DNA from: Rhizobium sp. Q54
GTDB taxonomy: Bacteria; Pseudomonadota; Alphaproteobacteria; UBA828
Assembly (NCBI GenBank): GCA_945902735.1
Contig: CAMDNF010000002.1
Span: 1,400 to 65,399, forward strand
Reading direction: 5' to 3'
Length of the DNA: 64,000 bases
Positions 8,139 to 61,440 of the stretch are shown here, one piece after another. The notes beneath the pieces are model-generated. The model worked only from the letters and a program-made list of their open reading frames with translations, was not told the origin of the DNA and searched no databases. Position 1 is the first letter of the stretch. Each line of letters opens with the position of its first letter. The position numbers and the translations under genes are program-made.

Positions 8139-9005
8139 CTAAATTCGGTAGCCGAATCTGGCCATCTGCGCGCCATGGCGGCCGACAATCTGCGCGGCCT
8201 GAGCCGGGGTTAGTACATCGCGCCAACCGTCCGCTTTGCCTTGGCGAAAAACTCTCTTCTGCGCCACTGTGCGCTCACGAAAATCTTCCTCAGCCTCTTG
8301 ACGGCTTAGTTGATCGAACGACGAAAACTCGATCGCTTTCATGAGTCGTTCCCGCGGCGGATCGAGCCCAAGGAAACGGCATAGAGCCCCGAATGCCTCA
8401 ACAGGCTGGGCCATCAAATCTTCGTACCGGACGACATGGAGGCCTGGGTGACTCACCTTGGTCCAACTATCGACATGGAGCGACCAGCTGCCGCGATATT
8501 CGTAAATGAACTTCTCGGTGTTCTCGGTCTGAACGTTTTGACCCAGTCGCATAATCGCTTCATCGATCGACATGCCGCTATGATCGGCATAGGAAATGAC
8601 CACGTCGAGGGGATAGCGCACGACGTAAATTGCCACGCCGGTATGCTCCATCGTAATCAAAGGCGTGCCGCGGTCGACAATAAGGGCGTTGTGGGTCTTA
8701 ACGAAAACGGAATCAGGATAAGTTCGCGTCAGCCTTTCATGAATTAAGGGGCGCAATTTCGCGATTTCATCCTTTGAAAGACTGTCTGCGCGTCGAACCG
8801 ACAATTTTTGATCGGATTCGTCAGCTTCCGCGCGGCTATCCAACACAGCCTGACACCAATCCGCATTCGAATCTTGGTGACAGAAGCGCACAAGGTTATT
8901 CAGCGGCACTGGCCGCTCTGGGTTCATGAAAAGATTGTGCAAGAACGCACGGAGCCACGTATTGCCGGATTTCGGATAGCTCGCGAGCCAAAGAATTTTT
9001 CCCAT
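8139..9005 (-). CDS. PAPS-dependent sulfotransferase (Sulfotransfer_1, StaL/Teg-like), tandem paralog
   Basis: Begins MGKILWLASYPKSGNTWLRAFLHNL; 3'-PB-like VVRYPLDVVIS. Same strand as, and directly upstream of, the first sulfotransferase, cysD and cysNC. Confidence 0.8.
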   Translation of the reverse strand: MGKILWLASYPKSGNTWLRAFLHNLFMNPERPVPLNNLVRFCHQDSNADWCQAVLDSRAEADESDQKLSVRRADSLSKDEIAKLRPLIHERLTRTYPDSVFVKTHNALIVDRGTPLITMEHTGVAIYVVRYPLDVVISYADHSGMSIDEAIMRLGQNVQTENTEKFIYEYRGSWSLHVDSWTKVSHPGLHVVRYEDLMAQPVEAFGALCRFLGLDPPRERLMKAIEFSSFDQLSRQEAEEDFRERTVAQKRVFRQGKADGWRDVLTPAQAAQIVGRHGAQMARFGYRI

Positions 9006-17409: not shown

Positions 17410-18315
17410 TCAGCGCGGGCCGAGCCGGCGCAATAATTCGTCGAGTTGCTCGGCGCTCCGATAGCGAAAAATCATTTCACCCGAACCATCGGCCTTGGTT
17501 TCGATGCTGACCTTAAGACCGAGGCTGGTGGAGAGCTTTAGCTCAAGATCACGCACATTGGGGTCTCGCGCCGCGCGAACGCGGGGCGGCCGGGGCACCC
17601 GCGTCGCCTCGCGAGCCAATGCTTCGGTCTGCCGCACATTCAAGTTCCGCGCGACGATGGTTTCGGCGAGCGCGACCGGATCGCGGGCGTTCAGAAGCGC
17701 GCGCGCATGACCCATGCTGAGCTGGCCATTGCCGAGCAGTGTTTTGACATAGGGCGGTAATTCCAAAAGCCGGATCATGTTGGTGACATGGCTGCGGCTC
17801 TTGCCGATCGCTTGGGCGACGGCATCTTGGGTATGGCCGAAGCGCGCGATGAGGCGCTGAAAGGCTTCGGCCTCTTCCAGGGGATTCAAATCCTCGCGCT
17901 GGATATTTTCAACGAGCGCTACCTCGAGCGCCTGATCATCGTCGAACTCGCGCACGATGGCCGGCAATTCATGGATCCCGGCGCGTTGCGCCGCGCGCCA
18001 ACGGCGCTCGCCGGCAATGATTTCATAACCACCGCCACTACGCTGACGCACCAGGATCGGCTGAAGCACACCGTTTTGTTTGATGGATTGGGCGAGCTCA
18101 TCGAGCTCCGCCTCGTCAAACACGGTGCGCGGTTGGATTGGGCTTGGGCGCAGCGAATCGATCGGGAGCGTGCGTAAATTTCCGGTGGTGCGCGGCTCCG
18201 CCTCGGCGCGCGCCGTCGCGCTATTGGCCGGCGCCACATCGCCAAGCAGCGCCGCGAGCCCCTTGCCGAGTCCGCCGCGCGGTTTCAATCCGCCATCACC
18301 TTGGGGGGCACTCAT
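17410..18315 (-). CDS. parB: Chromosome-partitioning protein ParB
   Basis: ParB box …GVLQPILVR…YEIIAGERRWRAAQRAG… and HTH (…SRSHVTNMIRLLELP…). Confidence 0.9.
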   Translation of the reverse strand: MSAPQGDGGLKPRGGLGKGLAALLGDVAPANSATARAEAEPRTTGNLRTLPIDSLRPSPIQPRTVFDEAELDELAQSIKQNGVLQPILVRQRSGGGYEIIAGERRWRAAQRAGIHELPAIVREFDDDQALEVALVENIQREDLNPLEEAEAFQRLIARFGHTQDAVAQAIGKSRSHVTNMIRLLELPPYVKTLLGNGQLSMGHARALLNARDPVALAETIVARNLNVRQTEALAREATRVPRPPRVRAARDPNVRDLELKLSTSLGLKVSIETKADGSGEMIFRYRSAEQLDELLRRLGPR

Positions 18316-19199
18316 GACGGTCTCTCCTCGGCCCCTTCGCGGCGCAACATTTCGCTCGCCAAGTGCGCATAGGCTTGGGCGCCGGCGCAGCTGATGTCGT
18401 AGAGCAGCACGGGCATGCCGAAGGACGGCGCCTCGGAGACGCGCACATTGCGCGGGATCACGGTGTCATAAACTTGGGCGCCGAAATGCGCGCGGACATC
18501 GGCCGCGACCTGGCCCGATAGCCGGTTACGATTATCGTACATCGTCAGGACGATTCCTTGGATTTTCAACTTAGCGTTGAAATTGCTACGGACTACATCA
18601 ACCGTGTGGAGGAGCTCGCTCAGGCCATCGAGGGCGAGAAATTCGCACTGCAGCGGCACGATGAGTGAGTCCGCCGCGACGAGGGCGTTGAGGGTCAAAA
18701 GGGTGAGGGAGGGCGGGCAATCGATCAGAACGTAATCGAAGCCCGGTCTCGAAGTTTCAGAGGGGCCATCGGGAAACGCGAATTCGCCTAATATATCAAT
18801 GGCTTCAGTTAAGCGGTGGGCGCGGTGCTCGGCGTCGACCAATTCGATTTCGGCACCCGACAAATCGCGGTTGGCCGGGACCAAAAAGAGATTGGGAACC
18901 GATGAGGTAACCATCGCTTCGCTGAGGCTCGCGCGGCCGATCAAGACCCCATAGGAGCCCGGTTGGCGCGCGGTTTTGTCAATGCCGAGGCCGGTTGACG
19001 CGTTGCCCTGGGGATCGAGGTCGATCAACAGCACGTGGCGGCCGGTGGCGGCCAGGGCCGTGCCGAGGTTGATTGCCGTGGTGGTCTTACCAACACCGCC
19101 TTTTTGATTGACCACCGCGATGACGCGGGGTCGTTGCGGCGCCGATGTGGTGATCGGCGTCAGACTGTCGGATTCACTGCTAAGTACTTGAGACACCAA
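18312..19199 (-). CDS. parA: Chromosome-partitioning ATPase ParA
   Basis: Deviant Walker A VIAVVNQKGGVGKTTTAINLGTALA. It overlaps the parB start by 4 nt; the start codon is non-ATG (TTG/GTG). Confidence 0.9.
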   Translation of the reverse strand: MVSQVLSSESDSLTPITTSAPQRPRVIAVVNQKGGVGKTTTAINLGTALAATGRHVLLIDLDPQGNASTGLGIDKTARQPGSYGVLIGRASLSEAMVTSSVPNLFLVPANRDLSGAEIELVDAEHRAHRLTEAIDILGEFAFPDGPSETSRPGFDYVLIDCPPSLTLLTLNALVAADSLIVPLQCEFLALDGLSELLHTVDVVRSNFNAKLKIQGIVLTMYDNRNRLSGQVAADVRAHFGAQVYDTVIPRNVRVSEAPSFGMPVLLYDISCAGAQAYAHLASEMLRREGAEERPS

Positions 19200-19761: not shown

Positions 19762-19777
19762 GGTTTCACGTGAAACA
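19762..19777. promoter_or_regulatory. parS: parS centromere-like site (ParB binding)
   Basis: gGTTTCACGTGAAACa matches the 16-bp parS palindrome tGTTTCACGTGAAACa at 14/16 positions, with a perfect palindromic core. It sits directly at the rsmG start, upstream of parAB. Confidence 0.7.
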
Positions 19778-27315: not shown

Positions 27316-28290
27316 ATGGTCAAGGCTGTTCGCATCCATAAACCCGGCGGTCCTGAGGCCATGGTCTATGAAGACGTTGACCTCGCGCCGCCGGGCGCGG
27401 GCGAGGCGCGAATCGTGCACAAGGCGATCGGCATCAACTTCATCGATGTCTATCACCGCACGGGGCTCTATCCGCTCGCGGCCTATCCCGGCGTGATCGG
27501 CATGGAGGGGGCGGGCCTTGTCGAGGCCGTTGGCACTGGTGTGACTGAAGTAAAAGCCGGTGATCGCGTCGCCTATGCCTCGCCGCCGCCCGGTGCCTAT
27601 GCCGAGGCGCGCAATCTCAAAGCCGCTTCTTTGGTCAAACTGCCGGCCGAAATTCCGTTCGAGAACGCCGCCGGCATGATGCTGCAAGGCATGACCGTCG
27701 AATATCTCCTGCGCCGCACCTATCAGGTGAAAGCGGGCGAGACGATTTTGATTCATGCCGCGGCCGGTGGCGTTGGGCTCATTCTTTGCCAATGGGCCAA
27801 GCATATCGGCGCGACGGTGATCGGCACGGTATCGAGCGAAGCCAAGGCTGAGCTCGCGCGCGCCCATGGCTGTCATCACCCGATCATCTACACCAAGGAA
27901 AATTTCGTCGAGCGCGTCAAGGAGATCACCAACGGGAAATTGCTCCCCGTGGTCTATGATTCGATTGGCAAGGATACGCTGATGAAATCGATGGAGTGCC
28001 TGCGCACGCGGGGGCTTCTGGTCAGCTTCGGTCAGGCCTCAGGCAAGCTCGACAATTTCGATACCGCCTCGCTCGCGCCGCGCTCGCTTTATTTAACGCG
28101 CCCGGGCCTGTTCAATTACATCGCGACACGGGCCGAGCTCGACGAATCGGCGAACGCGCTGTTCGATGTGGTGCGCGCGGGCAAGGTGAAAATCGACATC
28201 CATCACAAATATGCGCTGAAGGACGTGCGCCGAGCCCATATCGAGCTCGAGAGCCGCAAGACCACCGGCGGGCATATTTTGGTGCCGTGA
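27316..28290 (+). CDS. qor: NADPH:quinone oxidoreductase (zinc-type alcohol dehydrogenase superfamily)
   Basis: MVKAVRIHKPGGPEAMVYEDVDLAPPGAGEARIVHKAIGINFIDVYHRTGLYP…AAGGVGLILCQWAKHIGATVIG. Confidence 0.85.
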   Translation: MVKAVRIHKPGGPEAMVYEDVDLAPPGAGEARIVHKAIGINFIDVYHRTGLYPLAAYPGVIGMEGAGLVEAVGTGVTEVKAGDRVAYASPPPGAYAEARNLKAASLVKLPAEIPFENAAGMMLQGMTVEYLLRRTYQVKAGETILIHAAAGGVGLILCQWAKHIGATVIGTVSSEAKAELARAHGCHHPIIYTKENFVERVKEITNGKLLPVVYDSIGKDTLMKSMECLRTRGLLVSFGQASGKLDNFDTASLAPRSLYLTRPGLFNYIATRAELDESANALFDVVRAGKVKIDIHHKYALKDVRRAHIELESRKTTGGHILVP

Positions 28291-28300
28291 GAACACCCAT

Positions 28301-28408
28301 CCGCCCTTGAGGGCGGAACGGCCGGGGATGGTGGGTGACCTTAGAGCGGCCGAAGGCCGCTATGCTTCAACCCCACTCCCAACCCTCTCCCCGCTCACGG
28401 GGAGAGGG
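28301..28408. repeat. Mosaic REP-like element, copy 2
   Basis: ccgccc-ttga-gggcgg, gcggcc-gaa-ggccgc and ccctctccccg-ctca-cggggagaggg, with the shared backbone tgaSCYtagagcgg…ccgct…cc.ccctcccaaccc. The DMT gene's stop codon lies in the last hairpin. Confidence 0.6.
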
Positions 28409-32357: not shown

Positions 32358-33389
32358 TCAATCGCGCCGAAAATCGCGAATGAATTGGCTAAGCGCGCCG
32401 ACATTCTCGGGCGGCGTTTCCGGCACCACGCCGTGACCGAGATTAAAGATCAGCGGTCCGTTGTTCAGACCGCGCAAAATACGTTCAGCGTCAGCCAGCA
32501 TCGCAGCGCCACCGAGGATAACAAGCAAGGGATCGAGATTACCCTGCACGACGCATGTCGGTTGCAGCTCATTCGCGGCCCAATCAATTGGCACGGTGGT
32601 GTCGAGCCCGATCGCATCCGCCCCGGCGTGTTTCGCGGCATTCACATAATTGGCGCCGGCCCCGCGCGGAAACGCAATGATAGGGATGGTCGGGTGGCGG
32701 TGTTTTACGGCATCCACGATGGCGCGTATGGGTCTGGTCGACCAGCGCTCAAATTGCTGGTCCGATAACACGCCGGCCCAGCTATCGAAGAGTTGCACAA
32801 CTTCGGCGCCGGCGCTGATTTGTGCCGAAAGGTGTTCAATCGTCGCGTTGACAATCACATCGATGAGCCGCTCAAAGCCCTTTGGGTTGCCATAGGCCCA
32901 GGCCTTGGTTCGGGCAAAGTCGCGGCTCGAGCCGCCCTCAACCATATAAGTTGCAACGGTCCAGGGCGCACCGGCAAAGCCGATCAAGGTTGTTTCGGGC
33001 TCAAGACGCGACGCGATCAACGAAACGGCTTCGTAGACCGGGTCTAGTTTGGTCTTGAACTGGTCGGTTTCTAGGGTGGGAAGTCGATCGAGCGTTTCGA
33101 GCCGATCAAGTTTGGGGCCTTCGCCCTCTTCGAACCTTACCCCCATGCCAAGCCCATAAGGTACGACGAGAATATCGGAGAACAGGATCGCCGCATCCAT
33201 GCCAAAGCGGCGGACCGGTTGCAGCGTCACGTCCGTCGCGAGCTCAGGATTAAAACAGAGATCGAGGAATCCGCCGGCCTGTGCCCGGACCTGGCGATAT
33301 TCAGGCAAATACCGCCCAGCCTGACGCATGTACCAAAACGGCACACGAGCCGAGCGTTCACCTCGCAGCGCCGCGAGCAATGGTTTCAT
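32358..33389 (-). CDS. hemE: Uroporphyrinogen decarboxylase
   Basis: …VPFWYMRQAGRYLPEYR…; the ATG at 33389 (MKPLLAALRGE) is more likely than the TTG at 33407. Confidence 0.9.
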   Translation of the reverse strand: MKPLLAALRGERSARVPFWYMRQAGRYLPEYRQVRAQAGGFLDLCFNPELATDVTLQPVRRFGMDAAILFSDILVVPYGLGMGVRFEEGEGPKLDRLETLDRLPTLETDQFKTKLDPVYEAVSLIASRLEPETTLIGFAGAPWTVATYMVEGGSSRDFARTKAWAYGNPKGFERLIDVIVNATIEHLSAQISAGAEVVQLFDSWAGVLSDQQFERWSTRPIRAIVDAVKHRHPTIPIIAFPRGAGANYVNAAKHAGADAIGLDTTVPIDWAANELQPTCVVQGNLDPLLVILGGAAMLADAERILRGLNNGPLIFNLGHGVVPETPPENVGALSQFIRDFRRD

Positions 33390-33407
33390 GGGGTATGAGC
33401 CGGGCAA

Positions 33408-33816
33408 ACCGAGCCAATTTGTCGGTGCATAGTGGGTTTAGGGTTCGCCCTTCTTCTACTTCTAACTAGATTCTTAGGAAAGGATGATGTTGTAGATGGT
33501 GGCCTCGAATACGGTGATCCCCGCAATGGGTGAAAAGATGCAGGTTTGTGGACCTGAAACGCCATGCGATGCCAGAATGAGGACAATAGATAGGACCTAA
33601 TCTGAAGAGGCTTGGTGAGTGTGGCGTTTGGGTGCAAGGAATTATGGGGACTGATTATAGGATTCAAAGACGATGCCCGTGATTCACCCTGTCCAAACGA
33701 TCCTGCTCCGGATCTCTAACCCGGTACATGAAAGGACATGAACCTGCGGATAACTCGGCCCATGATTTCACCCCCATGGTCATCGGGCTCTTATCCACAG
33801 ACATTGTTCAGTTCCT
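33408..33816. other. oriC: Candidate chromosomal replication origin (oriC) between hemE and the DUF299/PSRP gene
   Basis: The only long non-coding gap (~410 bp) in the hem/maf/dnaQ neighbourhood. GC is markedly below flanks (AT-rich block 33430-33480). Perfect DnaA box TTATCCACA at 33791-33799, one-mismatch box TTATCCGCA on the reverse strand at 33745-33753, and three GANTC sites. The conserved hemE-oriC-DUF299 arrangement is described for alphaproteobacteria. Confidence 0.55.
33791..33799 (+). promoter_or_regulatory. Consensus DnaA box TTATCCACA
   Basis: Exact 9-mer match, 18 nt upstream of the DUF299 gene start, inside the AT-rich gap. Confidence 0.5.
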
Positions 33817-34644
33817 ATGGTTGATCAAAACCGCACGCTCCACCTCCATCTAGTTTCCGATGCGACAGGCGAAACCGCGATGGTGCTGGCGCGCGCGGCG
33901 CTCGCCCAGTTTGAAGGTGTTGCGCCGGTCGAGCATTTATGGCCGCTCGTGCGCAGTCAAAGCCAATTGCGCCGCGTCCTGGCCGGCATCGAGGCCAATC
34001 CCGGTGTCGTGTTCTATACCTTTGTCGAGGGCGAGCTAAGGCGAGATCTCGAGACCGGTTGCCGCATGGTGAGCGCCCCGTGTCTCGGTCTCCTTGATCC
34101 GATCATCGATGTGTTGCGCGGCTATCTCGGTATTGAGAGCCGCAATCTGCCCGGGCGACAACATGTGATGGATGCGCAATATTTCCAGCGTATCGAAGCG
34201 ATGAATTTCGCGCTGACGCATGATGATGGCCAAGCTGTTTCGACGCTTGATGACGCCGATATCGTGCTGGTGGGCGTTTCCCGCACGTCGAAAACACCGA
34301 CCTGCTTCTATCTTGCCAATCGTGGCCTCAAGGCCGCCAATGTGCCGATCGTGCCTGATTGTCCGCCGCCGGAGGCTTTGCTTCAACTGAGCAAACCGCT
34401 CATCGTTGGTCTAACGCGCGGCGCGGACCAACTCGTCGATATTCGCCGCTCGCGCTTGCGCACGCTTGGTCGCGATGACGAAACCGCTTATGTCGATCCC
34501 GAGGCGGTTGGTACGGAGGTTAAAGAGGCCCGGCGTCTGTTCGCCCGCGCGGGCTGGCCGGTGATCGATGTCAGCCGGCGCTCGATTGAGGAGACTGCGG
34601 CCGCTATTCTGCAATTGCATACGCGCCGGCTCGGGGAAGCCTGA
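33817..34644 (+). CDS. Pyruvate,phosphate dikinase / PEP synthase regulatory protein-family (DUF299 kinase/pyrophosphorylase)
   Basis: P-loop VGVSRTSKTPTCFYLANRGLKAANVPIV; 275 aa. Confidence 0.85.
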   Translation: MVDQNRTLHLHLVSDATGETAMVLARAALAQFEGVAPVEHLWPLVRSQSQLRRVLAGIEANPGVVFYTFVEGELRRDLETGCRMVSAPCLGLLDPIIDVLRGYLGIESRNLPGRQHVMDAQYFQRIEAMNFALTHDDGQAVSTLDDADIVLVGVSRTSKTPTCFYLANRGLKAANVPIVPDCPPPEALLQLSKPLIVGLTRGADQLVDIRRSRLRTLGRDDETAYVDPEAVGTEVKEARRLFARAGWPVIDVSRRSIEETAAAILQLHTRRLGEA

Positions 34645-40672: not shown

Positions 40673-41491
40673 ATGACCGAGAAAAAGCCCCGTGTCGGGC
40701 TGTTCGTCACCTGCCTCGTGGATCTGTTTCGCCCGAGCGTCGGTTTCGCCGCCGTCACGCTGATCGAGCGCGCCGGCTGCACGGTCGAGGTGCCCGAGGC
40801 GCAAACCTGCTGCGGCCAGCCGGCCTATAATTCGGGCGCGCGCCAGCACACGAAGGATATCGCCCGCCAGGTTATCGCGCTGTTCGAGGGTTATGACTAT
40901 GTGGTCGCGCCGTCCGGCAGTTGCGGCGGCATGATCAAGGCGCATTACCCCGATCTGTTCTCCGACGAGCCGTCATGGCACGCGCGCGCGGAGAAACTCG
41001 CGGCCAAAACCCATGAGCTGATCTCGTTCCTGGTCGATGTGCGCGGCATGAAAACGGTCGAGGCGCGCTTCGATGGCGCGGTCACCTACCATGATTCATG
41101 CTCAGGGCTGCGCGAGCTCAACGTTCACGCCCAACCGCGTAAGTTACTGGCGAGCGTCACCGGCCTCGCGCTGAAAGAATTGCCCGGCGCGCACATCTGC
41201 TGCGGCTTTGGCGGCACGTTTTGTATCAAATATCCTGAAATCTCGACTCGCATGGTGTCGGACAAGACCGCCGATATCGCCGCGACCGGCGCCGGCACGG
41301 TGCTTGCGGGTGATCTCGGCTGTTTGATGAACATGGCCGGGCGCTTGAGCCGCGAGGGCCGGCCGATCAAGGCGCGCCATGTCGCCGAAGTGCTGGCCGG
41401 CATGGGCGACCGTCCCGCGATCGGCGAGCCGGTTGTTCCTAATTCGCCGCATAAGCGGCGCGGCGCGGTCGCGCCGGCCAAATCTCGATGA
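40673..41491 (+). CDS. lutA: Lactate utilization protein A (Fe-S oxidoreductase, CCG domains)
   Basis: Duplicated Cys-rich CCG motifs (…VGLFVTCLVD…TCCGQPAYNSG… / …YHDSCSGLRELN…CCGFGG…). Confidence 0.8.
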   Translation: MTEKKPRVGLFVTCLVDLFRPSVGFAAVTLIERAGCTVEVPEAQTCCGQPAYNSGARQHTKDIARQVIALFEGYDYVVAPSGSCGGMIKAHYPDLFSDEPSWHARAEKLAAKTHELISFLVDVRGMKTVEARFDGAVTYHDSCSGLRELNVHAQPRKLLASVTGLALKELPGAHICCGFGGTFCIKYPEISTRMVSDKTADIAATGAGTVLAGDLGCLMNMAGRLSREGRPIKARHVAEVLAGMGDRPAIGEPVVPNSPHKRRGAVAPAKSR

Positions 41492-41537
41492 GTCAGGCTC
41501 ATCGAGATTTGGTGTAGGACCATACACGCACGCCGCC

Positions 41538-42938
41538 ATGGAGCCGCACAGCATCGACTTCAAAGAAGCCGCGAAGCGCGCGCTCGCCGATACCGAGCTG
41601 CAAAAATCGCTGAGCAGTTTCAAAGTCGGCTTTTCGCTGAAGCGTCTCGAAGCGATTCAAAAACTGCCGGAATTCGAAAATTTGCGCGATGAGGGCATCG
41701 CGATCAAACAACACACGCTCGCGCATCTCGATTTTTATTTGGGGCGCTTTGCCGAGAAGGTCGAAGCGGCCGGCGGCACGGTGCATTGGTGCCCGACACC
41801 CGATGATGGCCGCCGCGCGATTCTGGAAATCCTCCGCACCCATGGCGCCAAGACCGCGACCAAATCGAACTCGATGGTGGCGGAGGAATTGGGCCTCAAC
41901 GAATTCCTCGAAGCCAATGACATCGAGCCGGTCGAAACCGATCTCGGCGAATATATTATTCAACTCGCACATGAGCGGCCGAGCCACATTTTGGCGCCCG
42001 CCGTGCACAAGACCAAGGAGCAGGTCTCCGATCTTTTCTTCGAGCATCACAAGACGCGGCATTTGACCGAAGCGAGCGACATGGTGGCCGAGGCGCGGCA
42101 GTTTTTGCGCCCGCGTTATCTCGCGGCCGGCGCCGGTATTACGGGCGCGAATTTTCTGGTCGCCGAAACCGGCTCGATCGTGCTCGTGACCAATGAGGGT
42201 AATGCTGAGCTGACGCAGATTCTGCCCAAGGTTCATATTGTGCTCGCGACCGTCGAGAAGGTTGTCCCGACGCTCGAAGACGCCGCGACGCTGCTGCGGC
42301 TCCTCGCGCGCTCGGCCACGGGCCAGGAATTCGGCACCTATACGACGCTGGCGACCGGGCCGAAACAAATTGGCGATCAAGATGGGCCTGAGGCGTTTCA
42401 TGTCATTCTGCTCGACAATGGGCGCACGAAGATTCTTGGTGGCGAGTTTCGTGAGGTGCTGCGCTGTATCAAATGCGCGGCGTGCATGAACCATTGCCCG
42501 GTCTATTCCGCGGTCGGCGGCCATGCCTATGGCTGGGTCTATCCGGGGCCGATCGGCGCCGCGCTCGCGCCCAATTTGATCGGCCTCGAAGAAGCGCGCC
42601 ATTTGCCCAATGCCTCGACCTTTTGCGGGCGCTGCGAATCGGTCTGCCCGATGCGTATTCCGCTGCCCAAATTGATGCGCCAATGGCGCGAGCAGGAGCA
42701 CGAGAAAAAACTTTCGCCGCCGCGCTTTCGGCTCGGGCTCGATGCTTGGGCGTTCCTCGCCAAGCGCCCGGCGCTCTATGCTCTCGCGACCAAATTTGGC
42801 ATTGGTGTGTTGAGCGTCTTTGGCGGCGCCGGTCGCTTCAGCGCGCTGCCGCTGGCCTCGGGGTGGACCGCGACGCGCGATTTTCCGGCGCCCGAAGGCG
42901 CAACGTTCCGCGCCGCCTGGAAGAAGGCACGGGGCTGA
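41538..42938 (+). CDS. lutB: Lactate utilization protein B (Fe-S cluster-binding, DUF162/LUD + 4Fe-4S)
   Basis: …CIKCAACMNHCPVY…FCGRCESVCPM… ferredoxin motifs; ATG at 41538. Confidence 0.85.
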   Translation: MEPHSIDFKEAAKRALADTELQKSLSSFKVGFSLKRLEAIQKLPEFENLRDEGIAIKQHTLAHLDFYLGRFAEKVEAAGGTVHWCPTPDDGRRAILEILRTHGAKTATKSNSMVAEELGLNEFLEANDIEPVETDLGEYIIQLAHERPSHILAPAVHKTKEQVSDLFFEHHKTRHLTEASDMVAEARQFLRPRYLAAGAGITGANFLVAETGSIVLVTNEGNAELTQILPKVHIVLATVEKVVPTLEDAATLLRLLARSATGQEFGTYTTLATGPKQIGDQDGPEAFHVILLDNGRTKILGGEFREVLRCIKCAACMNHCPVYSAVGGHAYGWVYPGPIGAALAPNLIGLEEARHLPNASTFCGRCESVCPMRIPLPKLMRQWREQEHEKKLSPPRFRLGLDAWAFLAKRPALYALATKFGIGVLSVFGGAGRFSALPLASGWTATRDFPAPEGATFRAAWKKARG

Positions 42939-42939
42939 G

Positions 42940-44346
42940 ATGCCGGGATTGACCAGCGAGAATTTCCGCGCCAATTCGGTCAAGGCGCTGGCCAATCCGC
43001 AGCTGCAACGCGCGCTCGACAATATTCGGCGTGATTTCGTCGATTTTCGCGGCCGCGCGGTTGGTGAATTGCCGGAATATGATGAATTGAAGCGCCAGGC
43101 CATCGCGCTCAAGGATCATACGCTCGAAAACCTGGATTTCTATCTCGATGCCTTCGCGAACAATGTCGAGGCTTCGGGCGGTCATGTCCATTGGTGTCAG
43201 ACGGCGGGCGAAGCGCGCGAGGCGATCGTCGCGATTTGCAAGAAGCGCGGCGCCAAGACCATGGCCAAAGGCAAATCCATGGTCGGCGAGGAGATCGGGC
43301 TCAACGCCTATCTCGAGGCCGCCGGGTTGACCCCAATCGAAACCGATCTCGGCGAATATATCATTCAGATGCGCGGCGAAACGCCGAGCCATATCACGGC
43401 GCCCGCGATCCATCTGACCAAGGAAGATGTTGCCGATCTGTTTGCCGAGCGGCACAAGCGCCCGCGCAAGACCGAAATCCCGGCGCTGATCGCCGAGGCG
43501 CGAGAAATGTTGCGCCCGCGTTATCACGAGGCCGATATCGGCCTCACGGGCGCGAATTTTTTGATCGCAGAAACCGGCTCAAGCATGATCATCACGAACG
43601 AGGGCAATGGCGATCTGTCGCAAGTCTTGCCGCACACACACATCGTGCTGGCCAGCATCGACAAAATCGTGCCGACCATTGAGGACGCGCTAACGGTCGC
43701 GCGCATTTTGGCGCGTACCTCATCGGGCCAGGAATTCACGGTCTACAACACGTTTTCAACCGGCGCGCGCCAGCCCGGCGATTTGGACGGGCCGGAGGAA
43801 TTCCACGTCGTGTTGCTCGATAATGGTCGCAGCGCCCTGATGGGCACCAAGCAACAGGCGATGTTGCGGTGCATAAGGTGCGCGGCGTGCCTCAATCATT
43901 GCCCGGTCTATAAATCAGTCGGCGGGCACGCTTATGGCGCGGTCTATACCGGGCCGATGGGCGCGGTTCTGACGCCCACCATGGTCGGCCTCGACAAAGC
44001 GGGGCCGCTGCCCAATGCCTCGACCTTTTGCGGGCGCTGCGAATCGGTGTGCCCGATGGGCATTCCGCTGCCGGCTCTCATGCGCGATTGGCGCGAGCGC
44101 GAATTCGAACGCGCCGAGGCGCTGGCCACATTGCGAAAAGGCATCAATGCGTGGGCCTATTTGGCCAAACGCCCGATGCTCTATGCGCTCGCGACGCGGT
44201 TTGCCGCTGTCGCGCTCAAACTATTGGGCGGGCAACGTGGACGATTGGCCAGCCTGCCGCTCGGCGCGGGGTGGACCGCGACGCGTGATTTTCCGGCGCC
44301 CGAGGGCGCAACATTTCGCGCGCAATGGCGGCGCGCCAGGGGGTGA
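42940..44346 (+). CDS. Second LutB paralog (Fe-S cluster-binding lactate utilization protein B)
   Basis: Collinear with the upstream LutB and clearly similar (…CIRCAACLNHCPVY…FCGRCESVCPM…WTATRDFPAPEGATFRA…). It starts 2 nt after the first lutB stop. Confidence 0.85.
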   Translation: MPGLTSENFRANSVKALANPQLQRALDNIRRDFVDFRGRAVGELPEYDELKRQAIALKDHTLENLDFYLDAFANNVEASGGHVHWCQTAGEAREAIVAICKKRGAKTMAKGKSMVGEEIGLNAYLEAAGLTPIETDLGEYIIQMRGETPSHITAPAIHLTKEDVADLFAERHKRPRKTEIPALIAEAREMLRPRYHEADIGLTGANFLIAETGSSMIITNEGNGDLSQVLPHTHIVLASIDKIVPTIEDALTVARILARTSSGQEFTVYNTFSTGARQPGDLDGPEEFHVVLLDNGRSALMGTKQQAMLRCIRCAACLNHCPVYKSVGGHAYGAVYTGPMGAVLTPTMVGLDKAGPLPNASTFCGRCESVCPMGIPLPALMRDWREREFERAEALATLRKGINAWAYLAKRPMLYALATRFAAVALKLLGGQRGRLASLPLGAGWTATRDFPAPEGATFRAQWRRARG

Positions 44347-54606: not shown

Positions 54607-54666
54607 TCCGATTTGACGAACGCGCCTAGGCGCGCTCAAACAGGCGACGCAAAAAGGAAACCCGCC

Positions 54667-56178
54667 ATGAAGGTTGCGTTGCCCACGCCTGAGGAAATCG
54701 CACACATCGCCGCGCAATGCGGCTTTCACCTGACAGCCGACGAGATCGCGGCCTATCGCGGCCTGATGCCGATTTACATCGCGAGCTATAATTACGTCGA
54801 TGGCCTGGCCGAGGATCCGCCGCGCGTGAAATACCCGCGCGGGCGAGGGCACCGGCCAGCTGCGGCCGAGAACAAATATGGCGCCTGGGCCTGGAAGGCG
54901 CGGGTCGAAGGGGCGGCGAATGGTCCGCTCAAGGGCAAGACGGTCGCGTTGAAGGATAGCGTGATGCTCGCCGGCGTGCCGATGATGAATGGCGCGCGCC
55001 CGCTCGAAGGCTTCGTGCCGGACCATGACGCGACGGTGGTCGAGCGCCTGCTCGATGCCGGCGCGACGATTTTGGGCAAGGCGGAGTGCGAGGCGCTTGG
55101 CCTTTCCGGCGCGAGCCACACGAGCCCCTTCGGCCCCGTGCATAACCCGCGCAAATTCGGCTATTCGGCGGGCGGCTCGTCCTCCGGTTGCGCGACGCTG
55201 GTTGGGCTCGGCGAGGTGGATATGGCGCTCGGCGGCGATCAGGGTGGCTCGATCCGCATGCCGGCGTCCTATTCCGGCGTATGCGGCATGAAGCCGACCT
55301 ACGGCCTCGTGCCCTATACCGGCATCATGCCGATGGAAATCACGGTCGATCATGCCGGGCCGATCACAGCGACCGTGCGCGACAATGCGCTGATGCTCGA
55401 GGCCATCGCGGGGCCCGATGGCATCGACCCGCGCCAGCGCGATGTGATCGTGCATCCTTATGCCGCGATGCTCGATGGTGGGGTGAAGGGCTTGCGCATC
55501 GGCGTCGTGAAGGAGGGCTTCGGATGGCCGACCTCGGAGCCCGATGTCGATGACAGCGTGCGCCGCGCCGCAGAATTGTTCCGCAAGCTCGGCGCCAATG
55601 TGCATGAGATTTCAATTCCGCTGCATCGGAATGGCATCGATATTTGGCAGCCGGTCGCGCTTGATGGAATCATGGCGACCGCGATGTGGGGCGAGGGCCA
55701 GGGCGCGAGCCGCCTCGACCGCTACGCGGTCGGTCTCATGGCGCGCATGCGCGATTGGCCCAAACGCGGCGATGAGCTGCCCCACACGGTCAAAATGATG
55801 ACCGTGCTCGGCACCTATATCAAACAACGCCATGGCCTGCATTTTTATGGCAAGGCGATGAATCTGTGGGACCGTTTGCGCGGCGCCTATGATGCGGCGC
55901 TGAACGAGTGCGATCTGTTGCTGATGCCGACGCTGCCCTTGAAGGCAACCAAGCTGCCGACGGCTGATGCCGGCCCGACCGAAATCGTGCGCCGCGCGCA
56001 TGAGATGCTCTTGAACGTAGCGCCGTTCGACGCGAGCCATCATCCGGCGATGTCAATCCCGTGCGGCCTGAGCGACGGTCTGCCGATCGGGGTGATGCTG
56101 ATCGCCAAGCATTTCGACGAGCCGACGATCTATCGCGCGGCTTATGCGTTCGAGCAGGCCGAGGATTGGACGCGCTAA
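54667..56178 (+). CDS. Amidase (amidase-signature family)
   Basis: AS-family signature …GGSSSGCATLVG… with the Ser-cisSer-Lys context; ATG at 54667. Confidence 0.85.
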   Translation: MKVALPTPEEIAHIAAQCGFHLTADEIAAYRGLMPIYIASYNYVDGLAEDPPRVKYPRGRGHRPAAAENKYGAWAWKARVEGAANGPLKGKTVALKDSVMLAGVPMMNGARPLEGFVPDHDATVVERLLDAGATILGKAECEALGLSGASHTSPFGPVHNPRKFGYSAGGSSSGCATLVGLGEVDMALGGDQGGSIRMPASYSGVCGMKPTYGLVPYTGIMPMEITVDHAGPITATVRDNALMLEAIAGPDGIDPRQRDVIVHPYAAMLDGGVKGLRIGVVKEGFGWPTSEPDVDDSVRRAAELFRKLGANVHEISIPLHRNGIDIWQPVALDGIMATAMWGEGQGASRLDRYAVGLMARMRDWPKRGDELPHTVKMMTVLGTYIKQRHGLHFYGKAMNLWDRLRGAYDAALNECDLLLMPTLPLKATKLPTADAGPTEIVRRAHEMLLNVAPFDASHHPAMSIPCGLSDGLPIGVMLIAKHFDEPTIYRAAYAFEQAEDWTR

Positions 56179-56741
56179 TCGATCAGATGGTCGGATTGGT
56201 TTCTATGGTCAGACACGCATTCGATGCAAGATACATGCTGCCCAATATCGTAAAGAATGTAGCACTCCCCCGGCTCTGTGTTCCTGAATCTTTTTATGTG
56301 TTCGACCAATTCGTATAAAATCTCTCCTGACTTTAAAGTTGTCTTGTGATGAGATTCGTATCCCGGCGCTGAAAATACGAAAAACTTGAGGGGCGCCTTG
56401 CCGATCAGAAGCTTATTAAAATCCTTCATTATTTCGTCTTTTTTTCGCGCCAGCTCTATTTCACAAATCAATAATACATCACGAAATATGTCACCTTTAG
56501 ATCGTGCCCACACAACGTCAAATAAGAACTCGCGCTTACCTCTTTCGCCCGATGCAAAAAACTCTGAATCGTTAGGAGAATGGTCTCGGAATACGCCCTT
56601 AATTTCTGAGGTGTTCGCTTTTGTTTTATCGAGCGCTGATATGATGGAATTTATATTAGAAAATAATCCCTCTCGCCGCCACGAAGTCAAAGTTAAAAAT
56701 TCCAGATCTTCGTCCTCGTACAGATCGTCATCGTCGTCCAT
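56175..56741 (-). CDS. Orphan hypothetical protein encoded on an AT-rich islet (poly-acidic N-terminus; possible restriction-endonuclease-like core, unverified)
   Basis: 188-aa ORF uninterrupted through a ~40% GC segment, against ~65% in flanks. N-terminus MDDDDDLYEDEDLEF. Segment …GERGKREFLFDVVW…DVLLICEIELARKKDE… weakly resembles a PD-(D/E)xK β-β-α core. C-terminal C/H cluster C-x10-H-x2-C-x2-C-x3-H. No family recognised by eye. Confidence 0.55.
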   Translation of the reverse strand: MDDDDDLYEDEDLEFLTLTSWRREGLFSNINSIISALDKTKANTSEIKGVFRDHSPNDSEFFASGERGKREFLFDVVWARSKGDIFRDVLLICEIELARKKDEIMKDFNKLLIGKAPLKFFVFSAPGYESHHKTTLKSGEILYELVEHIKRFRNTEPGECYILYDIGQHVSCIECVSDHRNQSDHLID

Positions 56742-56817
56742 CTAATTGCTCCACTAAGATGCGAATGCTCCCCGCTGCTCCAGTTAGCGTATCTTGCGAG
56801 ACAAGTGACGAACAACG

Positions 56818-57315
56818 ATGAATGCAATGCAGCTGCAAATCCGCCCCGCCACACGCGCGGACGACGAAGCGGTTTGGCGCGTGATCGAACCGATGATCCG
56901 CGAGGGCGAAACCTATCCGCTGCCGCACGACATGACGCGGGACGCCGCGCTCGCGCATTTCCACCAGCCGGGTCATGAGATGTTCGTGGCCGAGGTCGAT
57001 GGCATCGTTCTCGGCACGTATTATTTGCGGCGCAATACCGGGGGTGGCGGCAGCCATGTGGCGAATTGCGGCTATGTCACCTTGCCAGCGTCGCGCGGGC
57101 TTGGCGTCGCGCGCGCCATGTGCCTCCATTCGCTCGATCACGCAAGAACGCACGGTTACCGTGCGATGCAATTCAATTTCGTGATCAGCACCAACGAGGC
57201 CGCCGTGCATTTGTGGCAGGCCTGCGGCTTTGCCATTGTCGGGCTCTTGCCCGGCGCGTTTCTCTCTCCCCGTCATGGCTATGTCGATGCGCTGGTGTTT
57301 TATCAGGCGCTATAG
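56818..57315 (+). CDS. GNAT-family N-acetyltransferase
   Basis: …VTLPASRGLGVARAMCLHSLDHARTHGYRAMQFN…. Confidence 0.75.
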   Translation: MNAMQLQIRPATRADDEAVWRVIEPMIREGETYPLPHDMTRDAALAHFHQPGHEMFVAEVDGIVLGTYYLRRNTGGGGSHVANCGYVTLPASRGLGVARAMCLHSLDHARTHGYRAMQFNFVISTNEAAVHLWQACGFAIVGLLPGAFLSPRHGYVDALVFYQAL

Positions 57316-57330
57316 GATTAGAGGCCTGCC

Positions 57331-58440
57331 ATGAAGACCATCAAGATCGACCGCGCTAGTCATCTCTGCGAGCAGCCCGAGACCGGGCACAATCGCTGGC
57401 ACCCCGATCTCGCGCCGCTGTTCGAGGTTGCAGAGGGCGAGGAGCTCAGTATCGAAACCCGCGATTCGAGCGATGGCTATCTGCCGGCGGGCGCGACGGT
57501 GGCCGATATGACCAAGTTCTCACCCAACGTGGTGCACCCCTTGACCGGGCCGATCGCGATCAAGGGGGCCAAGCCCGGCGATCTGTTGGAAATCGAGTTT
57601 CTCGACATCATCCCACGGGCGCGCGGCTTCTCGGTCATCGTGCCGGGCCTGGGCTATTTGCCCGATTTGTTTCCTGAGCGCTTTCTGGTGCATTGGACGC
57701 TGAAAGACGGCTTCGCGATCTCGGCGCAAATTCCGGGTGTGCGCATTCCCGCCGCGCCGTTCATGGGCATATCGGGCGTTGCGCCTTCGCATGACCAACT
57801 GGCGGCCTGGACCAAACGCGAGGCGGCGCTGGTCAAGGCCGGTGGCCACGCCTTCCCGCCCGAGCCCGAGGCTGCGGTGCCGGCGGGTGGGACGATCGCG
57901 ACGCATGGTCTCCGCACCGTGCCGCCGCGCGAGAATGGCGGCAATTTCGACGTCAAGCAGCTGACCAAGGGCGCCAAGCTTTTTTTGCCGGTCGCGGTCG
58001 AGGGCGCGCTGTTCTCGACCGGCGATAGCCATTTCGCGCAGGGCGATGGCGAGGTTTGTTTGAGCGCGATCGAAATGGGGGCGACCTGCGTGGTGCGGTT
58101 CAAGCTGCACCAGGGGGCGGCCGAGCGGCGCAAAATAAAATGGCCGATGTTCGCGCGCGACAGCTATTTCGCCGAGCCGCGCTTCGCCATGCCGGAGCGC
58201 TTCACCGCGACCATGGGCATGCCGATCGACGATGATGGCGTCAATCACAATGGCGATCTCAGTCTCGCCACGCGCAATGCGCTCATCGCCATGCTCGCGC
58301 TGTTGCAGGAGCGCGGCTATTCCAAAGAACAGGCCTATGTGATTTGCAGCGTCGCGGTCGACCTCAAAATCTCGAACGTGGTCGACGGGCCGAACTTCGT
58401 GGTCAGCGCCTTCCTGCCCGAGGCGATTTTCGACGCTTGA
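57331..58440 (+). CDS. Acetamidase/formamidase-family protein (FmdA/AmdA)
   Basis: MKTIKIDRASHLCEQPETGHNRWHPDL… and the conserved …GGNFDVKQLTKGAKLFLPV… region. Confidence 0.85.
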   Translation: MKTIKIDRASHLCEQPETGHNRWHPDLAPLFEVAEGEELSIETRDSSDGYLPAGATVADMTKFSPNVVHPLTGPIAIKGAKPGDLLEIEFLDIIPRARGFSVIVPGLGYLPDLFPERFLVHWTLKDGFAISAQIPGVRIPAAPFMGISGVAPSHDQLAAWTKREAALVKAGGHAFPPEPEAAVPAGGTIATHGLRTVPPRENGGNFDVKQLTKGAKLFLPVAVEGALFSTGDSHFAQGDGEVCLSAIEMGATCVVRFKLHQGAAERRKIKWPMFARDSYFAEPRFAMPERFTATMGMPIDDDGVNHNGDLSLATRNALIAMLALLQERGYSKEQAYVICSVAVDLKISNVVDGPNFVVSAFLPEAIFDA

Positions 58441-60849: not shown

Positions 60850-60927
60850 GGCTCGCTCCCTGCTGTGGCCATCATCATGCCGCGCCGGCCCCGCCCCGTC
60901 GAGGGGTAGGGGCGGGGCCCTGGCCGC

Positions 60928-61440
60928 CTAAACGAACAAAGACGGGTTGATTTTGAGGCCCCGGTCGCGGCAATAGCTCGTGTAGTGGTTGATCATCCAG
61001 AAGACGTCGAGCACGAGCGTGAGGTTATCGGCCTCGTCGAAGAATTCGAGCGCGCCCTGAATGCGGAAATAGGTCTTCATGCCGGGCTCGGCCACGAGTG
61101 TGTGGATCACGCCCGGGCTCTCATGAATGAAGCTGCCGGGCCGTGCCACCCAATCATATTCCAAATAGCGCCAACTGCCCTCGAGCACAAGCCCATCGAC
61201 CGGCCCCCGGTGGCGATGACGGCCGATCATGCCGCCGTCCGGCACATAGGTGATGTTGGTGAAGGCGTTGTTGCGCACGTCGAAACTGAGGTGGCGCACA
61301 AAGACGCCGGGAAAAATCGGCATCATCAGGCCATCATTGCCATCAGGCGCGATGTGCACGTCGGGCTGGCCATAGGCCTGGGTGATGCGCGCGATCTCGT
61401 CGCCGCCGAATGCCGCCGAGGGTTCCGGTGTGGTTGTCAT
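60928..61440 (-). CDS. Cupin-domain protein (2,4'-dihydroxyacetophenone dioxygenase-like)
   Basis: Cupin His cluster …[18 protein letters not shown]…; ATG at 61440 overlaps the gshB stop (ATGA). Confidence 0.65.

Follow-up and report, generated by a model that had tools for sequence, protein, structure and literature searches.

The 427-bp intergenic region between hemE and a DUF299 gene (positions 33390-33816) in a 64,000-nt stretch of contig CAMDNF010000002.1 (the whole stretch is called the window below) is very probably the replication origin (oriC) of the chromosome in this uncultured alphaproteobacterium, and it resembles Cori, the origin of Caulobacter crescentus, in position and layout. 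The analysis was computational and was carried out from the sequence. An origin at this place had been proposed in an initial annotation of the window, and the proposal is supported by the location of the gap, its gene neighbourhood, an AT-rich segment, the DnaA boxes, and comparative tests. In Caulobacter, Cori lies between hemE and duf299/CCNA_00001, and this gene arrangement has served as a criterion for recognizing origins (PMC6393856; PMC1914354); hemE is also an Ori-Finder indicator gene.

The hemE-DUF299 gap and its DnaA boxes

The region, its two boundary genes and the box-type elements on its DUF299 side are as follows (coordinates of the window).

33390..33816: candidate oriC, the whole hemE-DUF299 intergenic region, 427 bp, GC 0.50
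32358..33389, minus strand: hemE (uroporphyrinogen decarboxylase; TIGR01464, 409 bits), left boundary gene, start ATG 33389
33817..34644, plus strand: DUF299/PpsR-like kinase-phosphorylase (COG1806; NF003742, 327 bits), right boundary gene
33791..33799, plus strand: perfect DnaA box TTATCCACA, 17 bp ahead of the DUF299 ATG
33745..33753, minus strand: DnaA box with one mismatch, TTATCCGCA
33766..33777, plus strand: weak box-like element TTTCACCCCCAT (TCACCCCCA, 6/9 matches), partly conserved
33718..33736: conserved block AACCCGGTACATGAAAGGA (82% identity over 33718-33731)

The two boundary genes are transcribed divergently, away from the gap. The location between them stands as first described, and its left limit moves from 33408 to 33390: the TTG at 33407 is merely the first start codon of a mechanically derived hemE open reading frame (ORF), the NCBIfam hemE alignment starts at residue 10 of that ORF, and gene callers give a 343-aa HemE from ATG 33389 on identical public contigs, so that ATG 33389 was taken as the hemE start. 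On the public contigs PF03618 is recorded for the DUF299 gene, and in those with an identical DUF299 protein the gap is 100% identical, without strain-level variation. The depressed GC content reported earlier is evident at 0.50 against approximately 0.62 for the window; the gap is the second-lowest-GC 400-bp stretch of the window, and its 40-mer of lowest GC (33451-33490) is at 0.325. As for its size, the gap is the largest between approximately 23.5 and 56 kb, not across the whole window, where 56179-56817 and 60850-61436 looked larger in the ORF-based gene list.

Both DnaA boxes of the initial annotation are present at the places and on the strands given above. The window as a whole is not enriched in boxes with at most one mismatch (5 in 64 kb, against 5.3 in shuffles), and two of the five fall inside the gap. 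Dinucleotide-preserving shuffles of the gap contain 0.138 such boxes on average, with P = 0.008 for two or more and P = 0.006 for a perfect box; the cluster exceeds chance and is small. The weighted DnaA-box score of the gap is the highest in the window, and TTATNCACA occurs in no other intergenic region of at least 200 bp in the ORF-based gene list. The segment 33766-33777 may be a further, weak DnaA box-like element. In one relative (L168) the sequence aligned to the conserved block at 33718-33736 is itself a one-mismatch DnaA box, TGTGGATGA.

The same pattern was found across distant relatives. A HemE scan of species-representative genomes yielded 80 alphaproteobacterial loci (L001-L080) with a maximum HemE identity of about 61%; genome and metagenome scans with HemE returned nothing closer than about 60%, and closer relatives came from a large protein search only. 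The source lineage is therefore without a close cultured or representative relative, as no species representative exceeds about 60-61% HemE identity. In 53 of the 80 loci hemE lies next to DUF299, the two genes diverge, and the flanking genes are those of the window. The gaps of these 53 relatives have a median length of 428 bp and a GC content 9.5 points below that of their own loci, and the number of boxes with at most one mismatch in them is 94, where shuffles give 4.7 +/- 2.1, an approximately 20-fold excess (4.0 boxes per kb in the gaps vs 0.116 per kb in the flanks). Boxes located 0-49 bp from the DUF299 start are in plus orientation by 14:1, which is also the orientation of the perfect box in the window.

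Elsewhere among the 80 loci the hemE homologue does not lie beside DUF299 or origin-cluster genes (L044, L050, L066, L069 and L079, from Bradyrhizobium and relatives, and several Rhodobacterales), and in L047 and L059 DUF299 is missing while maf-aroE-coaE-dnaQ still abut hemE. Because of these exceptions the boundary-gene rule is not universal.

The hemE-proximal AT-rich repeat block

Four close relatives, with HemE proteins 97, 78, 77, and 70% identical to that of the window, were obtained from the large protein search and their contigs were aligned; the closest relatives are GCA_009691045.1 and GCA_009691035.1. In all four the synteny is the same and the gap measures 407-429 bp. Nucleotide identities of the window to the three more distant ones (78, 77, and 70%) are given below.

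Whole gap: 49%
Long spacer stretches: 34-39% (remainder of the gap 34-49%)
33448-33498: 83-87%
33718-33731: 82%
33790-33800 (perfect box): 85%
hemE coding DNA: 69-75%
DUF299 coding DNA: 77-83%

Most of the gap cannot be aligned in the 70-78% relatives. The AT-rich repeat block at 33448-33498 is more conserved than the hemE coding DNA, which argues for a sequence-specific function of this block. At 33745-33753 the 97%, 78%, and 77% relatives retain the one-mismatch box, in the form of TTATCCGCA, TTATCCGTA or TTATCCGCT. The block and the elements that follow it are composed of:

33448..33498: best-conserved block of the gap, putative unwinding region (C/T-rich run, AT core, and G/T-rich period-3 run)
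33450..33464, minus strand: DnaA-trio-like array of five tandem NAN triplets, 5'-TAG AAG TAG AAG AAG-3', followed by GC-rich GGGCGAACCC
33465..33480: AT-rich core ACTAGATTCTTAGGAA, containing a conserved GANTC (33469-33473)
33481..33501, plus strand: period-3 array AGG ATG ATG TTG TAG ATG GTG, C-free, with G at every third base
33502..33511: spacer, 10 nt
33512..33523: near-palindrome CGGTGATCCCCG, likely a weak DnaA site

The centre of the lowest-GC 40-mer lies 81 bp from hemE, at a relative position of 0.19 within the gap (median 0.13 and 90th percentile 0.19 in the distant relatives). The minus-strand array is kept in L166 and L167 and partly in L168, and the plus-strand period-3 array, the longest run of its type in the 64 kb, is nearly invariant in the 77-78% relatives. 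The near-palindrome is conserved in all four close relatives, and L002 has cggtaattcccg at the equivalent place; the family motif CGGGGATC matches its minus strand perfectly (CGGGGATCA, 33515-33523) and its plus strand with one mismatch. Of the GANTC sites in the gap (recognized by the CcrM methylase), only the one in the AT core is conserved, as GATTC or GAATC in all four close relatives; in the distant relatives the equivalent 60-bp low-GC segment holds a GANTC in 24 of 53 gaps, with 29 sites in total against 9.3 expected from composition.

The distant relatives, read with hemE on the left, share this plan. Their lowest-GC segment lies 50-75 bp from hemE. After the AT core comes a run that lacks C and has G at every third position (7-fold enriched, 20:2 on the same strand, median 78.5 bp from hemE), then a TGTGGATAA-oriented box of variable quality, then a near-invariant CGGGGAT(T/C)A, and often a box in the opposite orientation. 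CGGGGAT is 12.6-fold enriched in the relatives' gaps, with 44 copies on the plus strand and 9 on the minus strand, and a plus-strand copy is located 60-200 bp from hemE in 25 of the 53. The window follows the plan with its AT core, period-3 run, near-palindrome, and DUF299-proximal perfect box: the trinucleotide array (33481-33501) sits between AT-rich DNA (33465-33480) and the nearest DnaA-type site (33512-33523), and the order, strand, and distance of these elements match those in the relatives.

Many of the distant gaps (e.g. L005, L007, L009, L037, and L042) display a longer series, in which a TTATCCACA-oriented box and a C/T-rich three-base repeat precede the AT core, often with GANTC, and a (TAG/TGG/TTG)n repeat, a TGTGGATAA box, and CGGGGAT(T/C)A follow it. 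An AT core with a C-rich left and a G-rich right flank is present in 41 of 53 gaps, and a strong form of this signature in 40%, against 0.28% of random positions. An ad hoc scan of the window for the flanking-skew signature did not single out the gap.

This arrangement invites comparison with the basal unwinding system (BUS) of Bacillus subtilis (DnaA box(es), DnaA-trios, and AT-rich DNA; Richardson 2016/2019; Pelliciari 2021), where the DnaA-trios are placed between the unwinding region and the nearest box (PMC8287927; PMC6727663). The likeness lies in the order of elements, namely AT-rich DNA, three-base repeats in tandem, a short spacer rich in GC, and a site like a DnaA box. The difference is that the repeats of the hemE-gap family keep the outer T and G, not the central A, and that arrays on both strands flank the AT core. 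In several distant relatives (TAG)n is followed directly by a perfect TGTGGATAA. The minus-strand array of the window with its GC cluster is similar to the B. subtilis trio array, a resemblance which we take as a lead, not as a test.

Discordant evidence and rival explanations

A number of results that weigh against an origin in the gap, or lend it no support, are collected here. One group concerns the unwinding elements. The published BUS rule asks for a box with at most two mismatches within 16 nt of at least three NAN triplets (PMC8287927). Our own test was stricter (box with at most two mismatches, spacer of 0-16 nt, at least four NAN triplets, correct strand and side), and by it no box-array pair qualified in the gap: the five NAN triplets at 33450-33464 on the minus strand conform to the central-A rule and have no DnaA box within 16 nt on the expected side, and the plus-strand array at 33481-33501 adjoins the box-like CGGTGATCC and has a central A in one triplet only. 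Nor is the strict rule enriched in the relatives (4% of gaps vs 3.7% of flanks). Because the rule fails in the window and is not enriched in the relatives, we call the repeats trio-like only, and they should not be read as a demonstrated BUS. A profile hidden Markov model of the relatives' module, searched with nhmmer, did not find the window's copy at the gap. Strong boxes in the gap number two only, and no dnaA motif was found in the window, as is usual in Alphaproteobacteria.

A second group concerns regulatory sites. The three GANTC sites of the initial annotation are present (33469, 33661, and 33681), and their count lends no weight to an origin, being typical of intergenic regions: three other intergenic stretches of the ORF-based list also have three each (one of them, 954-1655, is mostly a GNAT gene). 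GANTC enrichment was accordingly dropped as evidence. Window-wide, GANTC is strongly under-represented (154 sites vs approximately 319 in dinucleotide-preserving shuffles). The gap contains no CtrA site (TTAA-N7-TTAA or TTWW-N7-TTWW) or half-site, having no TTAA at all, and no match to the IHF consensus WATCAN5WTR. The Caulobacter regulatory layer is therefore not evident in the gap, and CtrA-mediated silencing is not expected. CtrA sites define Caulobacter-style regulation, not origin identity; a lack of CtrA/IHF consensus sites is common outside Caulobacter (PMC4468827; PMC1914354), and origins with zero to one CtrA site are on record (Ioannidis et al. 2007, PMC1914354).

The most discordant evidence comes from the composition of the strands. 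To the left and to the right of the gap cumulative GC skew rises, without a minimum at the gap (skew +0.021 on the left, positions 1-33389, and +0.029 on the right; about +0.03 on both sides at third codon positions, GC3; peak of +0.055 at 10-20 kb). With gene strand controlled, the effect of side at the gap is 0.002 +/- 0.007 for all positions and -0.003 +/- 0.012 for GC3, and a model without a switch (plus strand G-rich throughout) is better than a switch model (residual sums of squares 110 vs 145 and 432 vs 493). Breakpoint scans of GC, GC3, and TA skew fit best near 3-5 kb, where the fit rests on 3-5 genes. No signal at the scale of the window was found in KOPS (FtsK-orienting polar sequence), chi, or the polarity of all 6/7-mers, and nothing beyond local noise was found as an explanation of the positive skew on both sides. 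The test was calibrated at +/-8.5 kb on 37 relatives with at least 8 kb per side: the expected sign on both sides occurs in 46% only, and the window falls at the 14th and 30th percentiles and is not an outlier. The local skew test is thus weak at this scale and does not refute an origin, since it fails in about half of the relatives, a calibration that applies to 8.5 kb and not to 30 kb. The discordant skew is the reason why our confidence in the origin is not higher, and the suggestion that the gap be used as a reference point for strand bias is not yet backed locally, as the 64 kb contain no polarity switch of GC skew. Short-range skew should be used with caution as an origin test, because it leaves the origin unmarked here and in about half of the relatives.

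These observations could be taken to mean that the gap is a divergent promoter/regulatory region or a relic origin, with DnaA serving as a transcription factor of hemE or DUF299 and the active origin located at another site, such as one past the window's left end. Such an explanation would accommodate the G-rich plus strand on both sides, the better fit without a switch at 33.6 kb, the breakpoints near 3-5 kb, the presence of two good boxes only, and the short distance (17 bp) of the perfect box from the DUF299 ATG, a place that a promoter or operator might occupy. The best-conserved block, however, is not formed by boxes, but by AT-rich, strand-asymmetric repeats 60-110 bp from hemE, and the repeat module recurs in dozens of distant lineages at a matching position and with matching polarity. 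Skew is equally erratic in relatives over +/-8.5 kb, the 3-5 kb breakpoints hang on few genes, and gene order and orientation in the left arm are as in relatives, with no inversion evident. Given the position-specific AT/repeat module and the 20-fold excess of boxes in homologous gaps, we regard a promoter or relic origin as improbable. That the boxes are a functionless chance cluster in an AT-richer intergenic region deserves still less credence: AT-richer spacers do favour AT-rich 9-mers, and the window-wide number of boxes equals expectation, but the shuffles of the gap itself seldom yield two boxes or a perfect one, the position and orientation of the DUF299-proximal box are specific in distant relatives, and both boxes are conserved across a spacer that has diverged beyond alignment, which disfavours chance.

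The conserved segment 33448-33523 might instead, or in addition to an unwinding element, be a small RNA, a leader, or an element of the hemE 5' untranslated region. It lies 60-135 bp upstream of hemE, and in Cori a small RNA gene is present, together with hemE promoters from which transcription affects replication (PMC6393856). Rfam searches of the whole window at gathering thresholds and of the gap at E <= 1 brought up no credible RNA family, however, and the fold z-scores of the conserved block are unremarkable (-0.11 as RNA, +0.47 as DNA), with a consensus folding energy of -4.65 kcal/mol and negligible covariation. A consensus scan for promoters and terminators found no sigma-70-like promoter (alphaproteobacterial promoters may escape such a scan) and one terminator-like hairpin at chance level. 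An RNA element was therefore rejected as the main explanation, and as a reading of the segment, alone or alongside unwinding, it is unlikely; as in Cori, the region probably overlaps with hemE promoters. A 93-aa ORF in the gap (33386-33667, minus strand), which has no Pfam match and overlies unalignable spacer, was discarded as spurious, so that with no Rfam match and no stable RNA or DNA fold the gap has no competing annotation.

Gene neighbourhood and relation to known origins

The genes around the gap, identified with NCBIfam models, are ordered as leuS and holA (plus strand), parB-parA-rsmG-mnmG-mnmE (minus), four plus-strand genes, EamA-rho-hemJ-hemH-hemE (minus), the gap, and DUF299-maf-aroE-coaE-dnaQ (plus), with secB and fxsA (minus) and tim44 and mltA (plus) to the right of dnaQ. 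Curated cut-offs are exceeded by hemE, hemH, hemJ, rho, DUF299/PpsR-like, aroE, coaE, dnaQ, secB, Tim44, parB, rsmG, mnmG, mnmE, leuS, and holA; maf, mltA, and parA match their models below cut-off. The synteny on which the initial annotation relied (hemJ-hemH-hemE, then DUF299-maf-aroE-coaE-dnaQ) agrees with these assignments, as do the parB-parA-rsmG-mnmG-mnmE cluster and rho. The parS that it had placed at 19762 was also recovered:

19762..19777: parS GGTTTCACGTGAAACA, centromere site, one mismatch to the consensus, 13.6 kb from the gap

This is the sole match with at most three mismatches in the window (0.09 expected), and it marks the origin-proximal domain. With parA and parB at 17410-19199, parS and parAB are 13-16 kb from the gap; in Caulobacter parB lies within 10 kb of Cori (PMC5587793). 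The parS of the window is not beside parB; it is found where mnmG and rsmG meet, and either overlaps the rsmG start or lies just upstream of it.

Two other large intergenic stretches were considered as rival origins and rejected: 56179-56817 holds an orphan 188-aa ORF, 954-1655 is mostly a GNAT acetyltransferase gene, and neither has a TTATNCACA box. The 188-aa ORF (56175-56741, minus strand) is the lowest-GC stretch in the window (about 40% GC in a 62% GC genome), encodes an acidic N-terminus (MDDDDDLYEDEDLEF...) and has no Pfam match; its neighbours are an amidase gene (54613-56178) on one side and a formamidase-like operon (56818-58440) on the other, and it is probably an orphan gene that is foreign to the genome. 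Farther from the subject, two LutB/LldF-family paralogues are arranged in tandem (41379-42938 and 42820-44346) after a CCG-domain LutA-like gene (together 40673-44346), an arrangement also present in L166 and L167. In the 97%-identical relative (L164, GCA_009691045.1) a PIN-domain gene at 8266-8643 lies beside the EamA transporter gene, and the window lacks it at about 28290-28395; L168 has a PIN/FitA-like pair beside the EamA transporter gene. This difference near the origin looks like a toxin-antitoxin insertion/deletion polymorphism.

If the gap is the origin, we infer that initiation would proceed as follows. DnaA would bind the high-affinity boxes on the DUF299 side (33791-33799 and 33745-33753) and also weaker sites of the GGGGAT/TCCCC type (33512-33523, possibly 33636-33652 and 33766-33777), and its oligomer would grow toward hemE and open the duplex at the AT-rich core (33465-33480). 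The three-base repeats beside the core (33450-33464 on the minus strand, 33481-33501 on the plus strand) would hold single-stranded DNA in the manner of DnaA-trios. Upon firing, forks would depart both ways, co-oriented with the hemE-hemH-hemJ-rho and DUF299-maf-aroE-coaE-dnaQ blocks.

Cori, which we compared by its published description and not by sequence alignment, shares with the window the divergent boundary genes, an intergenic length of about 400-450 bp, AT-rich DNA, a few DnaA boxes with additional weaker sites, GANTC sites, and parS/parAB within about 10-15 kb. In Cori the unwinding element lies beside hemE, the same polarity as proposed here. The reviews cited for Cori place an AT-rich region within it and do not give its side (PMC6393856; PMC1914354). 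Cori differs in having five CtrA sites (TTAA-N7-TTAA) and an IHF site, whereas the gap of the window has none, and in its best boxes, which are G-boxes with a weakening T-to-G change (PMC4468827), unlike the perfect TTATCCACA of the window. Against the hemE-adjacent origins predicted in Rickettsiales and other Alphaproteobacteria (Brassinga et al.; Ioannidis et al. 2007, PMC1914354), the gap agrees in boundary genes, length above 300 bp, AT content, DnaA boxes, and conservation; it departs from them in CtrA and IHF sites, within the known range of origins with zero to one CtrA site. A shift of GC skew, also among the criteria for those origins, is not seen in the 64 kb, where the local test is weak. 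The gap is best read as a further member of the known hemE/DUF299 (Cori-type) class of oriC, in an uncultured lineage, a result that a specialist would expect.

Of mild interest beyond this lineage is the architecture of AT core, period-3 repeats, and CGGGGAT, which is position-specific and conserved in many alphaproteobacterial hemE gaps. We found no explicit description of DnaA-trio-like arrays in hemE-adjacent alphaproteobacterial origins in the open-access literature, which is weak evidence of novelty. We tentatively consider, as a possibility more doubtful than not, that the hemE-proximal block is an unwinding module widely shared by alphaproteobacterial origins and not explicitly described. 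Such a module would consist of an AT core, often with the CcrM site GANTC, flanked on its two sides by (CTN)n and (TNG)n on opposite strands, and bounded by a TGTGGATAA box and the near-invariant CGGGGAT(T/C)A site; it would represent a two-sided, central-A-independent variant of the DnaA-trio, here without CtrA sites.

For a lineage known only from metagenome-assembled genomes, the gap fixes a probable origin and hence a probable replichore boundary, which may be used in genome orientation, in growth-rate estimates from coverage, and in strand-bias analyses.

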